Assembly (NCBI GenBank): GCA_049323655.1
Contig: JBMONO010000011.1
Location: 21,574 to 85,573, forward strand
DNA length: 64,000 nt
Origin: Thermodesulfobacteriota bacterium
Lineage (GTDB): Bacteria; Desulfobacterota; Desulfobulbia; Desulfobulbales; SURF-16
Reading direction: 5' to 3'
A program made the translations under genes and the position numbers. Shown piece after piece: positions 44,368 to 50,597 of the stretch (positions are counted from its first letter, which is position 1; every line of letters begins with the position of its first letter). The notes under the pieces were generated by a model that saw only the letters and a list, made by a program, of their open reading frames with translations, was not told the DNA's origin and did no database searches.

Positions 44368-45021
44368 TCAAAGATGGAGGATGATCTCCTCCGGTCTGGC
44401 GAGGAGGGCGCTGGCGCCGGCCCTTTGCAATTCATCGGCGGTCCGAAATCCCCACAGGGCTCCGAGGGGCAGCATGCCGGCTGAGACCGCTGTCTGCATG
44501 TCGGTTGCCGTATCCCCGAGATAGAGAATATCGTGTCCTGAAATTCCCAGTTTATCCGCGATGTCGAGGGCGCCTGCCGGATTCGGTTTTTTCGGCACAT
44601 CCGGTCTGGCGCCGACGACATGGTCGAAACGATGACCAGGGAAAAAGGCGGCAACAATACGCTGCGTCATGGCATCCGGCTTGTTGGAGAGGATGTTGAG
44701 ACTGAGTTCGCGATCGGCAAGGGTTACCAGCATGTCGTCCACGCCGGGATAGGTGCGGGTTTTATCACGCCAGTGGACCCCGTATTCCAGTGTCATTTCA
44801 TGAACCAGTCGTTTCGTCAGCTCCGGGCTGCGGGCATGGTCCGGCAGAGCTCGGCTGATCAGCAGATCGATCCCGTCACCGACAAAATAACGGTAACGGT
44901 CAACCTGATGTTGTGGAAAACCATTATCACCAAGGACCCGGTTCATTGAATCGGCGAGATCTTCCAGGGTGTCCAGCAAGGTGCCGTCGAGGTCGAAAAT
45001 AATCGCTTTGATGCTCTTCAT
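44368..45021 (-). CDS. HAD-family hydrolase (phosphoglycolate phosphatase-like)
   Basis: FDLDGTLLDT, SNK, KPNP, LGDTATD, WGF. Confidence 0.9.
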   Translation of the reverse strand: MKSIKAIIFDLDGTLLDTLEDLADSMNRVLGDNGFPQHQVDRYRYFVGDGIDLLISRALPDHARSPELTKRLVHEMTLEYGVHWRDKTRTYPGVDDMLVTLADRELSLNILSNKPDAMTQRIVAAFFPGHRFDHVVGARPDVPKKPNPAGALDIADKLGISGHDILYLGDTATDMQTAVSAGMLPLGALWGFRTADELQRAGASALLARPEEIILHL

Positions 45022-45188: not shown

Positions 45189-45349
45189 TCACACGTTTTA
45201 AAAGGAAGAAGAATAAAGGTTTTGCGCGGCCTTTGACGGTGTTTTATCTACGTAAACGGCTCGTTTATGAAACCGGATTCAGTTTACCCCAGCACAGGTA
45301 AGATGTATAGAAGAAACTAAAATTGTATTCAAGGAAAGGAGGAGTTACC

Positions 45350-46279
45350 ATGTCAATTTGTGTTGTTGGCCATTCAAATCCCGATACCGATTCCGTTGCA
45401 GCGGCAATTTCCTATGCGAATTACCTGAAGGCCCAGGGACAGGATGCGGTCGCCTGTATGCAGATCGACGCCGCCGCTCTTAATCCCGAGAGCAAGACCG
45501 TTCTTGCCAAGTTCGGCCTGAAGGCCCCGGAAACACTGATGGACGCAAGCGGCAAGAAGATCGCCCTGGTTGACCACAGCGATCTGGCCCAGGCTCCGGC
45601 CAATCTCGGCGCCGCTGAAGTGGTAGCCGTTGTCGATCATCACAAGATCGGCGATCTTACCACCAACAATCCCATTTATTTCAACGCCCAGCCGGTCGGC
45701 TGCACCTGCACTGTCCTGAACGAGATGTATAAGAACAGCGGCATCGCCATTCCCAAAGACATCGCCGGCATTATGCTCGCCGCCATCCTGAGCGATACCG
45801 TCAATTTCAAGTCGCCCACCTGCACCGATGCCGACAAGGCCGCTGTTGCCGATCTGATGAAGGTTGCCGGCATCAGCGACAAGGACTCCCTCTTTATGGA
45901 TATGCTGAAGGCCAAATCCTCGGTTGACGGCATCCCGGCCAAGGATCTGCTGTTCCGCGACTACAAGGACTTCGACATGAAGGGCAACAAGGTCGGTGTC
46001 GGTCAGCTCGAACTGGCGACTCTCGATCAGGTGGCAGCCATTCGTGGCGATCTTATGAAAGAGATGGAGAAGGTGAAAGCCGAAGGCCGTCATTCCGTCC
46101 TGCTGATGCTCACCGACGTTGTCAAGGAAGGAACCGATCTCGTGGTCCTCTCCGACGATCCGGCCCTCATCGAGAAAGCCTTCAACGGCAAACTGGCCAA
46201 CAGCTCCATGTGGATCGACGGTATGATGAGCCGCAAGAAACAGACCATCCCCAATCTGCAGAAGGCCTTCGGCTGCTAA
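45350..46279 (+). CDS. ppaC: Mn-dependent inorganic pyrophosphatase (family II)
   Basis: GHSNPDTDS, VDHH (DHH), ILSDT, SRKKQ; GGAGG RBS. Confidence 0.95.
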   Translation: MSICVVGHSNPDTDSVAAAISYANYLKAQGQDAVACMQIDAAALNPESKTVLAKFGLKAPETLMDASGKKIALVDHSDLAQAPANLGAAEVVAVVDHHKIGDLTTNNPIYFNAQPVGCTCTVLNEMYKNSGIAIPKDIAGIMLAAILSDTVNFKSPTCTDADKAAVADLMKVAGISDKDSLFMDMLKAKSSVDGIPAKDLLFRDYKDFDMKGNKVGVGQLELATLDQVAAIRGDLMKEMEKVKAEGRHSVLLMLTDVVKEGTDLVVLSDDPALIEKAFNGKLANSSMWIDGMMSRKKQTIPNLQKAFGC

Positions 46280-46634: not shown

Positions 46635-48170
46635 TTAATGTACCAGTTTGCTGTCGCGGCTGTACTCAAAAGAATCGTCATGCTCCGGGACATGGCAGAG
46701 CAGGCAGATATCCGCCGCCGGTTTGGCGGCGAGTTTCTGGTTGGTCGGATCGCTGGTGTGGAGCAGTGCCGGGCCATGGCATGACTCGCAGCCGACGTTG
46801 CGCAGGTTCTCGGGCAGGGTGAGGGCCATGACCTGGTCCTGTCGGGAAACGCCGGTCACATGACAGTAGAGGCAGGCGGCATTGAACTGCTGGTTCTTGT
46901 CAACCAGCGTCTGATAGGCCCGGCCGTGCTGACTCTGCTGCCAGGTGTCGCTGATCTCGCGATGACACTCGAAACAGGCCTGGCTGCCGGCATAGCCCGG
47001 AAGCCCGAGTTGATCCGTCACCTGTCTGCCCATGGTGTTGATCTTTTTTCTGGTCTCCTTGTTGATCGCTGCGATTTCTTGGTCATCGGCAAGACTGACG
47101 GCGATTTCCAGAAAGCGGTTTTCATAGGTTGACCCTGCCGGGTTTTCCTTCTTTTTTTCCTCTGCCAGCCGGATCTCCTGCTCCAGGGACTTCATCCTCT
47201 CGGCGATTTTCCGGTAGGCGTTGAGGGTTGCCGGCTTATCCTTGAAAATTACCTCCGGATCACCCTTTTGCTGGATCCTGTCAAGCTGCCAGGCAAGGCG
47301 ATCATGCTCCTGTTTTTTGAGCAGCGCGTCATCCTGGCCGTGATCTTCCCATTTGCCGCTGTCATTCCAGGTGATGGCGATTTTGCCCAGATATTTTCCC
47401 CGCCTTTCCGTCTGACAGATCAGGGTGTTGCCCTGCAATACCGGTGGGATATTGTGGGCCTGGCGGGTGGAGTGAACGAGCAAGTGGATATCCTCGAATT
47501 GATGGCTGATTTTTTTGTTTTCCTCGGCACCGGCACTGGAGAGAAGGATGATAAAGTCGGTGTGCGGCCGCAGCTCGGCCATGATCTTCGGCAGCGCCTC
47601 CTCCCAGGAGAGGATCCGGTAACCTGAATCGGTTTTGCCTGGAGGCGAATTGTCATTGCCGGTCAGACCGATGATGCCGATACGCAGGCCATTCCTTTCC
47701 AGGACGAGAGAGGGGGAAAAGAGCGGGGTGTTGCGGGCGTCAACCAGGTTGGCGCTCAGCCAGGTAAATGAGGAAACCTTGGCCTGCTGTTGCAGAAAGT
47801 CGAGACCGCCGCCCAGATCGTTAGGGGAGACGCCAACGGCATGATAGCCCATGCGGTTGTATGCGGCGACGATGCCCTCGGCATTGATTTTTGCCTGCTC
47901 GCCTGACCTGCCCGGTGGGATCGGCAATTTGTCGAAAAGCGGGGCGCCGGCGTCGACCAGCAGCATGGTTGCCGGGTCAAATCCCTGTTGGGTGAGCAGT
48001 GTTTGTTTTTTGGGCAGACCGCCCAGTTGTTTTGTCTTTCAGCCGCACGGTTCGGTTTCCCCGTGGATGTCGTTGGTGTAAAAAACGGTCAGTTTTCCTG
48101 TGGTTCCTGCATGCAGGGCAGCAGGAAGAAGAACGAGCAACAGCAGTAAAAACGTCCGGAGAAGATGCAT
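46635..48170 (-). CDS. UshA-like selenoprotein (Sec44, C-G-U) fused to a tetraheme cytochrome c (c554-like) domain, 511 aa
   Basis: ORFs 48039-48227 and 46635-47966 are in frame across a single TGA (48039-48041): signal peptide-TNDIHGETEPCG-U-KTKQLGGL...LLVDAG; four CxxCH motifs (CFECH, CLYCH, CESCH, CLLCH). Confidence 0.85.
48011..48041 (-). promoter_or_regulatory. UGA plus putative bacterial SECIS hairpin
   Basis: UGA, then 13 nt, then UGGGC-GGUCU-GCCCA stem-loop with a G-leading apical loop. Confidence 0.7.
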
Positions 48171-48181
48171 GGTTGCTTCCT

Positions 48182-49507
48182 TTACTGTTTTGGGGTGGAT
48201 TTTCTTTGGGAGAGAATAAGACGCCATTTGGTCAGCCTGTCCTTGATGGTCGCTTCATAGCCGCGGGTGGTCGGTTCGTAGTAACGGGCGCCGTGCAGTT
48301 CCTCGGGCAGGTGGTCCTGATCAACCAGGGCCAGGGAGGAATCGTGAGCATACTGGTAACCCTTGCCGTAACCGAGTTCTTTCATTAATCTGGTCGGCGC
48401 GTTGCGGATGTGGAGCGGCACCGGCAGGCTGCCGGTCCGCTCGATGTCCTGGGTAACCAGGTTGAAGGCAGCGTAGGTGGCGTTGCTTTTGGGCGCGGTG
48501 GCAAGATAGATGGTTGCCTGGGCCAGGGCGAGCTCACCTTCCGGGGAGCCCAGCATGTGATAGGTTGCCCGGGCGTTGAGAGCGAGGGCAAGGGCCTGGG
48601 GATCGGCATTGCCGACATCCTCGGAGGCGAAGCGGATCAGGCGCCGGGCGATGTAGAGCGGGTCTTCGCCGGCTTTCAGCATGCGAACAAGCCAGTAGAG
48701 GGCGCCATCGGGGTCGCTGTCGCGCAGGCTTTTGTGGAGAGCGGAAATGAGGTTATAGTGCTCCTCGCCGTCCGCGTCGTAGCGGAGACTGGTGCGGTGA
48801 AAGGCGTCGGTGACAATATCCAGGGTGACGTGCCGAATGCCGTCCTCGCTTTGTGGCGCCAGTGACGCCGCCAGTTCCATGCTGTTGAGCAGCCGGCGGC
48901 CGTCGCCGTCCGCCATGGCAATGAGATGGTCAACCGCCTCATCGGCAAAAGACAGATTACGGTCGCCCAGACCGTTTTTGCTGTCTGCCAGGGCCCGCGC
49001 GAAGATGGTATTGAGATCAGCGGGCGAGAGCGGGGTAAGGGGCAGCACCCGGCATCGGGACAAAAGGGGAGCGATGATCTGAAAGGAGGGGTTCTCGGTG
49101 GTGGCGCCGATAAGAATGATGAGACCGCTTTCCACATGGGGGAGAAAGGCATCCTGCTGCGCCTTGTTGAACCGGTGGATTTCATCGACAAAAAGAATGG
49201 TGGACAAGCCGGCAAACTGGTTCTGCCGGGCCTCTTCGATGATCTGACGAATCTCCTTTACGCCTGCCAGTACCGCGGAAAAAAAGATAAAGGCCGCCTC
49301 GGTCGAGCGGGCGAGAATCCGCGCCAGTGTCGTTTTGCCGGTGCCGGGCGGTCCCCAGAGAATAAGCGACGGCAGCCGGTTTTCCTCAAGCAGGCGCCAC
49401 AGTATCTTTCCTTCGCCCAGCAGGTGTTCCTGCCCGGCGAATTCGCTGAGCTGCTGGGGCCGCATGCGTTCGGCCAGCGGTTTATTGTCCGGAGCCGGGG
49501 TAATCAT
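48182..49507 (-). CDS. rarA: Replication-associated recombination protein A (MgsA/RarA)
   Basis: [49 protein letters not shown]. Confidence 0.96.
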
Positions 49508-50316
49508 GGTGTTGTGGTAAAAAGCCGGATGATTTTTTCTGCCAGCCGTTCGGAGGAAAAAACCAGGGATTCGAGATCGAGGTAATCCAGAACCCCGGCA
49601 TCGTAGAGAATCTTGACCCTGGCCGGAAAGGCGTCCTCTTTTTCCTCATCCCAGAAAAGAAGCTGCTGGGGCAGCCGGGGCAGCACCGGGACGAGAAAGG
49701 TCAGGTCCGTTGCTGCCGAGGACAGGGGGGCGGCGCCGACAGAGCGGCAGGCGGCGATGATTTTCGTTCTCGACTGACCGGCAAAGAGCCGGGCCAGCGG
49801 CTCCTCACAGTAACGGGCCAGGGTTTTCACCTTGGAGATGGAGTTTGGCAGGCTTTCCAGGCCGATCCATTCTCCGGTCGGCGGCGCTCCGCCGCCGAAA
49901 CGGATATAATTGTAAAGGAGAATCTGATCCCGCGGGTCTTCCGGTTCGCGGCCGTCGATCAGGAGCGTCCTCTGATCCAGCAGGACCTGATGGTTGAGAT
50001 AAGAAAAGGAAAGGCGGCCGTCGTTCTCGGCGGAGGGGGGATGAATGCCGAGGGCTGGAGTGATGGCGGCCAGGTCGAGATCAGCGATCTGCCCCCGCAG
50101 CCGTCGGACCAGTTCGAGATCATGCTGTTCACCGAGTTTGTCGAGCCCGGCGCCGGGTTGCTTGTCCAGAACGAGGCCGTCGAGGCGGAGAAAGGGGCAT
50201 TTCCGCGGGTCTTCGCCGCTGCGCGCCACGTTGGCGGCAAAGGCAAGACAGGTGGGGTAGCCACACTGGCCGCAGTTTGTTTTCGGGGTCCGCTGGACAA
50301 TATCGAGGGGATTCAT
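49504..50316 (-). CDS. DUF3786 protein with N-terminal 4Fe-4S (CxxCxxxxC...CP) domain
   Basis: PKTNCGQCGYPTCLAFA...CP; QILLYNY, VLPRLP, FWD. Confidence 0.8.
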   Translation of the reverse strand: MNPLDIVQRTPKTNCGQCGYPTCLAFAANVARSGEDPRKCPFLRLDGLVLDKQPGAGLDKLGEQHDLELVRRLRGQIADLDLAAITPALGIHPPSAENDGRLSFSYLNHQVLLDQRTLLIDGREPEDPRDQILLYNYIRFGGGAPPTGEWIGLESLPNSISKVKTLARYCEEPLARLFAGQSRTKIIAACRSVGAAPLSSAATDLTFLVPVLPRLPQQLLFWDEEKEDAFPARVKILYDAGVLDYLDLESLVFSSERLAEKIIRLFTTTP

Positions 50317-50321
50317 ATCCC

Positions 50322-50597
50322 TCACAAAACCATTGTAATTGAGGCGTGGTGACGGAGGGCGGCAAAGAAAAAGTTTCTCGCCTCTTCGGAGGCCACCGTC
50401 ACCTCAAGGTTGAAGGAAATATATCTGCCGGTGCGGCTCGTATGGGAAAGGTCAAGAGTGTGTTCCGTCTCCCCCATGATCTGCTGAACCGCGACTTCGA
50501 TCTCCCTGGCCTCGGAACCGATGATTTTATAGAGCCAGCGACAGGGGTACTCAATTACCGGTTTGTCTTCATGTATGTTGCTGTTCATGGTCGTCAT
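50322..50597 (-). CDS. DUF493/YbeD-family protein
   Basis: IEYPC.W.YKIIG, SRTGRYIS; GGAGG RBS before MTTM. Confidence 0.85.
   Translation of the reverse strand: MTTMNSNIHEDKPVIEYPCRWLYKIIGSEAREIEVAVQQIMGETEHTLDLSHTSRTGRYISFNLEVTVASEEARNFFFAALRHHASITMVL

Follow-up and report, generated by a model that had tools for sequence, protein, structure and literature searches.

How is a gene to be read when standard open reading frame (ORF) calling leaves it as two pieces, the first of them ending at a TGA? This question is raised by a locus on the minus strand of a 64,000-nucleotide (nt) stretch of DNA, hereafter the window, from a Thermodesulfobacteriota bacterium (contig JBMONO010000011.1). There, an UshA-like N-terminal region and a C-terminal tetraheme cytochrome domain lie in one frame that is interrupted by a single TGA. 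The TGA may be a true stop, leaving a pseudogene or two products (a 43-amino acid (aa) peptide and a 443-aa protein), or it may be decoded as selenocysteine (Sec) within one protein. As set out below, the locus as a whole is, with high probability, best explained by the second answer: the two halves given by ORF calling belong to a single gene, whose product is an exported selenoprotein of the ordinary NF041198 (NCBIfam) type. As to what this protein does, the best reading would be that a Cys/Sec pair serves as a redox centre connected to the four hemes.

A single frame across an in-frame TGA

Re-reading of the minus strand revealed a single frame of 511 codons (48170–46635), which starts with ATG at 48170, closes with TAA at 46637–46635 and contains one in-frame TGA at 48041–48039, corresponding to codon 44; the read-through product has 511 residues. 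Standard ORF calling cuts this frame in two: the first ORF (62 aa) stops at the TGA, and the second (443 aa) begins with the ATG at 47966. Between the TGA and this ATG there are exactly 24 sense codons, KTKQLGGLPKKQTLLTQQGFDPAT, and the residues around the TGA read ...FYTNDIHGETEPCG-U-KTKQLGGLPKK.... An initial annotation of this DNA had stated that the ORF track splits the gene, that the TGA at 48039–48041 is in frame and that 24 sense codons lie between; all three statements were reproduced. The signal peptide before the TGA, the four CxxCH motifs at the C-terminus and the 511-aa frame that it described are likewise present in the read-through translation. A Shine-Dalgarno-like AAGGAAG sits in the 11-nt gap between the stop of the upstream rarA/mgsA gene and the UshA-like ATG (Table 1).

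For comparison with homologs we used an alignment of 33 proteins that are 35–63% identical to the window's protein. A hydrophobic N-terminus was found in 31 of the 33 aligned homologs, the remaining two (L025 and L042) starting without one as called. Taken alone, the 443-aa downstream ORF has the heme sites, which need export, and no signal peptide; this counts for one exported read-through protein and against a true stop. When UGA is not read as Sec, ORF calling misses both the signal peptide and the active-site motif of such genes, and for the window the annotation fix is to replace the two ORF fragments by one exported selenoprotein.

The TGA as a probable selenocysteine codon

The genome that contains the window is 99.6% complete. 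The initial annotation had proposed looking in it for selA/selB/selC/selD, and all are present: profile searches detected selA (615 bits), selB (376 bits) and selD (377 bits), and a tRNA-Sec with the anticodon tca scored 71 bits. As a separate observation, the selD gene (TIGR00476; G000:C5:10544-11470, locus L010, outside the window) has one in-frame TGA of its own, which would make the selenophosphate synthetase itself a selenoprotein.

Thirty related loci were fetched, among them the window's own locus and one near-identical relative, and in all 30 the TGA stands in the same column (..PCG*..). Four additional copies, all from a single genus, have no stop; they carry TGC at the TGA column and read PCGC (4/4), which is the Cys at the UGA position that had been suggested as a check on homologs. 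P41, C42, G43 and position 44 are invariant in the alignment (33/33 rows), and both before and after the TGA the reading frame stays open and is conserved.

A hairpin, UGGGC-GGUCU-GCCCA, had been reported to lie 13 nt after the TGA, and ViennaRNA indeed folds exactly this stem of 5 base pairs (bp), formed by TGGGC (48025–48021) and GCCCA (48015–48011) around the loop GGTCT (48020–48016). What raises this hairpin above chance is the comparative codon data and not the single-sequence fold. Across the 29 Sec rows of the alignment that were used for codon counts, the hairpin codons are frozen (GGC in 29/29, GGT in 27/29 and CTG in 29/29); at 17 other invariant residues with 4- to 6-fold degeneracy, the commonest codon is found in only 10–22 of the 29 rows. 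The hairpin downstream of the UGA thus appears to be kept at the nucleotide level, and this codon use is the best evidence for a recoding signal. Several observations weigh on the other side. By itself the fold is at chance level (z = -0.39 for a 71-nt stretch, with 66 of 200 shuffles at least as good), the stem is only 5 bp long, and no Rfam family of the selenocysteine insertion sequence (SECIS) type was matched in 47900–48200, where the sole match had E = 3. Moreover, the peptide encoded by the hairpin, QLGGL, is invariant as well, including in the Cys copies, so part of the nucleotide conservation is apparently conservation of the protein; among the four Cys copies, which are close relatives of one another, a relaxation of the hairpin would not show clearly.

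Because of the Sec machinery in the genome, the shared TGA column, the Cys copies and the frozen hairpin codons, TGA 48041–48039 very probably encodes selenocysteine, and we are close to certain in predicting that the gene product is a true selenoprotein of the NF041198 family. A true stop would agree with the two ORFs of standard calling and with a hairpin that is not significant alone, but it is opposed by a TGA shared in one column by 30 of 30 loci at 35–63% protein identity, by Cys in the four extra copies, by a frame that stays open and conserved on either side, by hairpin codons frozen at synonymous sites and by the full Sec machinery. Together with the signal-less heme protein that would result, this makes a true stop hardly credible.

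A curated and widespread family

The protein matches NF041198 ('UshA_like_PCGU', UshA-like (seleno)protein) with 577.4 bits at a cut-off of 275. The match runs from end to end (residues 8–504, profile positions 5–519 of 519), so the curated model spans the heme tail too. In a six-frame genome search with this profile, the window's locus scored 569.3 bits with one TGA. Of 61 genomes from the order to which the window's genome belongs, the same search placed 51 above the cut-off, nearly all of the matches having exactly one TGA; in a sample of the phylum, 50 of 301 genomes were above the cut-off, mostly with one TGA. Rather than being new, the gene belongs, as a typical member, to a selenoprotein family that is curated and has long been catalogued.

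In the passages concerned, 'COG0737, UshA-like, CxU' is counted among the major families of selenoproteins in the GOS data set, and its lack of a classical Cys-based redox motif is noted there (PMC2398784). 'UshA-like protein, COG0737, CxU' forms a row in the table of a 2022 review (PMC9312934), and 'UshA-like protein' is also listed in PMC13188914; in these excerpts, selenoprotein surveys from 2008, 2022 and 2026 carry 'UshA-like, CxU'. The passages that a term search found in the three surveys (PMC2398784, PMC9312934 and PMC13188914) give a table listing, in which neither a function nor hemes nor lost metal ligands are mentioned, and agree with the initial annotation, which had called the family known and its function unresolved. 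A full-text literature search that combined selenocysteine, multiheme and metallophosphoesterase returned no match, and in such a search NF041198 was named in the 2026 review only. The family is common in the order and in the phylum and nearly always spends a selenocysteine, and the biochemistry of any member would fill a real gap.

Some relatives depart from the usual layout. A paralog in the same genome (G000:C29; L057:253-1467, minus strand) encodes an exported protein of 404 aa, without a TGA or heme motifs, in which ..TPTMICGG.. replaces ..EPCGU..; it matches NF041198 with 138.6 bits over positions 3–343 and has no Pfam match at 1e-5. Two further family matches of about 250 bits, each with one TGA, lie inside frames of 1212 and 897 aa (G080:C1:3593582-3594925 and G338:C120:7835-9241; loci L064 and L065). 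These long frames are possibly larger fusions, and no NCBIfam name was obtained at 1e-20 for the long ORFs that surround the two matches.

A 5'-nucleotidase fold with a remodelled active site

Pfam detects the C-terminal cytochrome only, and the scan of the protein gave no Metallophos or 5_nucleotid_C at E ≤ 0.1. A profile built from the alignment and compared with the PDB matched 3ivd, a putative nucleotidase (3e-18), and E. coli UshA (1ush, 5e-15), and weakly SoxB (6e-5). The AlphaFold2 model calculated on the alignment has a mean predicted local distance difference test score (pLDDT) of 83.6 and a predicted template modelling score (pTM) of 0.76; it consists of a beta-rich N-domain (25–270), long helices (281–382) and a small helical heme domain (395–511). 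Foldseek aligned the model to 1ush, 1hp1 and 1oie at E ~1e-18, with 21–23% identity to UshA and CD73 over about 295 columns. The UshA-like character of the protein, claimed from the outset, is borne out by the NF041198 score (577 bits) and by the Foldseek match to E. coli UshA (E ~1e-18), and the profile and Foldseek comparisons also support the fold of the metallophosphoesterase-like N-terminus that the TGA had been said to interrupt.

The dimetal ligands and catalytic His of 5'-nucleotidases lie in the motifs DxH, GD, GNH[DE], H and GH. The ligand positions of the window protein were derived from hidden Markov model alignments to 3ivd and UshA and the make-up of each column from the 33 rows; the canonical positions were compared by UshA residue numbers. 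At these positions the family varies or has replacements (Table 1). Invariant instead are P41-C42-G43-U44, Q48, G50, G51, L52, D73, G75, D118, S211 and N218. The fold of the 5'-nucleotidase N-domain is thus kept, but the canonical dimetal ligands and catalytic His appear to have been lost, which makes classical phosphoesterase activity unlikely. The invariant Cys-x-Sec, right after the first strand, where the metal site would have been, would be the natural candidate for a catalytic centre.

It could be argued that the protein is still a working phosphoesterase or a SoxB-like hydrolase of the 5'-nucleotidase superfamily, in which Sec would only tune or regulate the activity. The resemblance of fold and sequence to UshA, CD73 and 3ivd would fit, as would weak matches to the SoxB thiosulfohydrolase model TIGR04486 (35.5 bits here, 75–80 bits in two distant members), but the scores of the window protein are far under the cut-offs, both for SoxB (550) and for the UshA equivalog NF007109 (49.4 bits against 600). 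In addition, the positions of metal ligands and catalytic His are not conserved, and the C-terminal substrate-binding domain is replaced by a helical linker and the heme domain. We therefore consider a hydrolase very unlikely.

The tetraheme domain

The C-terminal domain matches PF13435 (Cytochrome_C554) over residues 398–466 with 51.8 bits at a cut-off of 20.8, and weaker multiheme families match too. In the PDB, the alignment profile found the multiheme protein 6i5b (1e-23) and cytochrome c554 (1bvb, 2e-14). None of the 33 rows departs from the four CxxCH motifs or from H415 and H471, and each of the 34 gene copies examined has four CxxCH motifs. The window's genome has four Cytochrom_C_asm genes above the Pfam cut-off. 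The proposed fusion to a tetraheme cytochrome is supported by the PF13435 and PDB profile matches to a c554-like domain, and the charged helical insert noted in front of it corresponds to the helices of the model that are given in Table 1.

The same genome also contains two small stand-alone ORFs (G000:C47:20913-21287 and G000:C10:2555-2899, in open frames of 221 and 162 aa) that match profile positions 396–518 only. By sequence they are unfused tetraheme cytochromes of the c554-like kind, akin to the C-terminal domain of the window's protein.

Proposed working of the protein

We propose that SelB and Sec-tRNA(Sec) would read the UGA at codon 44, aided by the hairpin, and that the unfolded chain would be exported via the Sec route and its four hemes attached in the periplasm. 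There, the protein would hydrolyse no phosphoester; the Cys42/Sec44 pair would cycle between a selenenylsulfide and the thiol/selenol form in the remodelled active-site cleft, and this redox centre would exchange electrons with the four-heme chain, in either direction. As a guess, the substrate might be an inorganic compound of sulfur, selenium or arsenic in the periplasm. We offer this Cys/Sec redox mechanism tentatively, as a serious possibility that falls somewhat short of an even call. The wider statement, that the PCGU family is a pseudo-phosphoesterase scaffold in which the dimetal site was replaced by a Cys-Gly-Sec redox centre, joined through a helical linker to four hemes of the c type, is possible and slightly more doubtful. 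If true, the PCGU family would form a kind of periplasmic selenoenzyme that has not been described before, possibly one for inorganic S, Se or As species in sulfur-cycling bacteria, and the gene in the window would be an ordinary copy.

Three observations speak against a Cys/Sec redox centre. The PCGU loop (residues 41–47) has a pLDDT below 50 in the model; acidic residues are conserved (D34 in 28/33 rows, D73 and D118 in 33/33), so some metal site is possible; and no constant thiol-redox, quinone-linked or outer-membrane partner was found among the 28 same-order and 10 distant loci.

Cys-Gly-Sec might instead supply the ligands of a centre made of a metal or a metal chalcogenide, such as a Cys/Sec-bound site of the Fe, Ni, Cu or Mo/W-free kind, and be no selenenylsulfide pair, in which case the protein would be a metalloenzyme or a metal/metalloid handler fed by the hemes. 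Its scaffold descends from a dimetal enzyme, and the invariant D73, D118, S211 and N218 lie around the old site; the canonical His and Asn ligands, however, are gone. One distant copy (L063) lies amid ACR3, an ArsG-type permease and ArsR, and another (L060) near an SO_0444-type Cu/Zn efflux gene and ZupT, but a metal or arsenic context was seen in only 2 of the 10 distant loci and in none of the 28 same-order loci. Furthermore, the surveys, in the passages found, list the C-x-U spacing with redox motifs. We judge a metal-ligand role unlikely and prefer the Cys/Sec redox centre connected to the four hemes.

Genomic surroundings

The upstream rarA/mgsA gene and the UshA-like gene are probably co-transcribed, which does not imply a functional link. 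Across the same order, the arrangement of DUF3786/Fe-S protein gene, rarA/mgsA, UshA-like gene and convergent DHH/DHHA2 gene is conserved: rarA/mgsA precedes the UshA-like gene in 24 of 28 loci, and where any ORF follows it (26 loci), DHH/DHHA2 was found downstream in 19. At two loci (L042 and L043), a DUF3786 gene takes the place of rarA directly upstream of the UshA-like gene. The shared neighbours are housekeeping genes, suggesting a conserved chromosome order rather than a pathway.

Among 10 distant loci of the phylum, the neighbours vary. A pathway deduced from them (three with an aldehyde:ferredoxin oxidoreductase (AOR) gene, one arsenic cluster and one PhsA/TtrB-type gene) was rejected. 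AOR-family genes adjoin the PCGU gene at L058:2753-4714, L060:7043-9004 and L067:3424-4482, as well as at L044:3467-4492 of the first set of loci; the four loci come from different families. The arsenic cluster surrounds a second copy in genome G183 (PCGU gene L063:4925-6325), which lies amid ACR3, the ArsG-type permease, a SaoE/SO_0444-like efflux gene and ArsR/SmtB (L063:1848-10236); this single case is a possible hint at metalloid handling. At L060, the SO_0444-type Cu/Zn efflux gene and ZupT stand beside the PCGU gene, and at L066 a PhsA/TtrB-type reductase lies 3 kb from it. Two genes downstream of the PCGU gene of L058, the formate dehydrogenase alpha subunit appears as two ORFs of 185 and 568 aa (L058:3-2312, minus strand), a pattern typical of an FdhA that contains Sec and whose frame is split at the UGA.

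Table 1. Positions of the gene, its parts and its neighbours in the window, and state of the canonical 5'-nucleotidase ligand positions (numbered by residue)
Feature	Position	Strand	Basis or remark
Whole gene, 511 codons + TAA, TGA read as Sec	46635..48170	-	NF041198, 577.4 bits
Shine-Dalgarno-like AAGGAAG, 5 nt 5' of ATG	48176..48182	-	read from sequence
Putative signal peptide, residues 1-21, MHLLRTFLLLLLVLLPAALHA	48108..48170	-	Sec-type, hydrophobic; read from sequence
P41-C42-G43-U44 motif; Sec codon TGA 48041-48039	48039..48050	-	homolog columns
SECIS-type hairpin UGGGC-GGUCU-GCCCA, starts 13 nt after UGA	48011..48025	-	ViennaRNA and codon conservation
5'-nucleotidase N-domain-like (calcineurin-like) fold, residues ~25-270, degenerate metal ligands	47361..48098	-	profile and Foldseek
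Charged helical linker, residues ~281-390	47001..47330	-	DSSP on model: helices 281-301, 313-342, 364-382
Cytochrome c554-like tetraheme domain, residues 395-511	46638..46988	-	PF13435 and PDB profile matches
CxxCH C399-H403	46976-46962	-	
CxxCH C433-H437	46874-46860	-	
CxxCH C461-H465	46790-46776	-	
CxxCH C489-H493	46706-46692	-	
Motif I His	residue 36		H13/R12/Q4/L2/A1/K1, 33 rows
Motif II Asp (DAGD in 3ivd)	residue 76		A26/S3/N2/G2, 33 rows
Asn-His of GNHE	residues 116, 117		highly variable, 33 rows
Motif IV His	gap beside invariant S211 (33/33)		not aligned
Motif V His	region of residue 233		Q in 28/33
rarA/mgsA-type AAA+ ATPase, upstream	48182..49507	-	Pfam MgsA_C, 229.9 bits
DUF3786/Fe-S protein, beyond rarA/mgsA	49504-50325	-	
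DHH/DHHA2 (family II pyrophosphatase-type), downstream, convergent	45323-46279	+	
HAD hydrolase, next after DHH/DHHA2	44368-45021		

Comparison with known systems

Compared with NF041198, all features of the window protein (PCGU, four CxxCH motifs and signal peptide) are common, and nothing is notably different. A second curated family, NF049981 ('UshA-like (seleno)protein family 2'), is likewise built on the scaffold of this superfamily and has a Sec near motif I; however, the window protein reaches only 37.8 bits there at a cut-off of 140, and NF049981 has CxxU instead of CxU in a profile of 262 positions without a heme domain. With E. coli UshA and other 5'-nucleotidases (1ush, 3ivd and CD73 4h1y), the protein shares the fold of the N-domain and export, whereas it lacks the canonical ligands and the C-terminal nucleotide-binding domain and has, in addition, the Cys-Gly-Sec insertion after motif I and the C-terminal tetraheme domain. 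This last domain is of the tetraheme packing motif family of Nitrosomonas cytochrome c554 (1bvb/1ft5) and 6i5b; in contrast to cytochrome c554, it is here the C-terminal module of a larger, enzyme-like protein.

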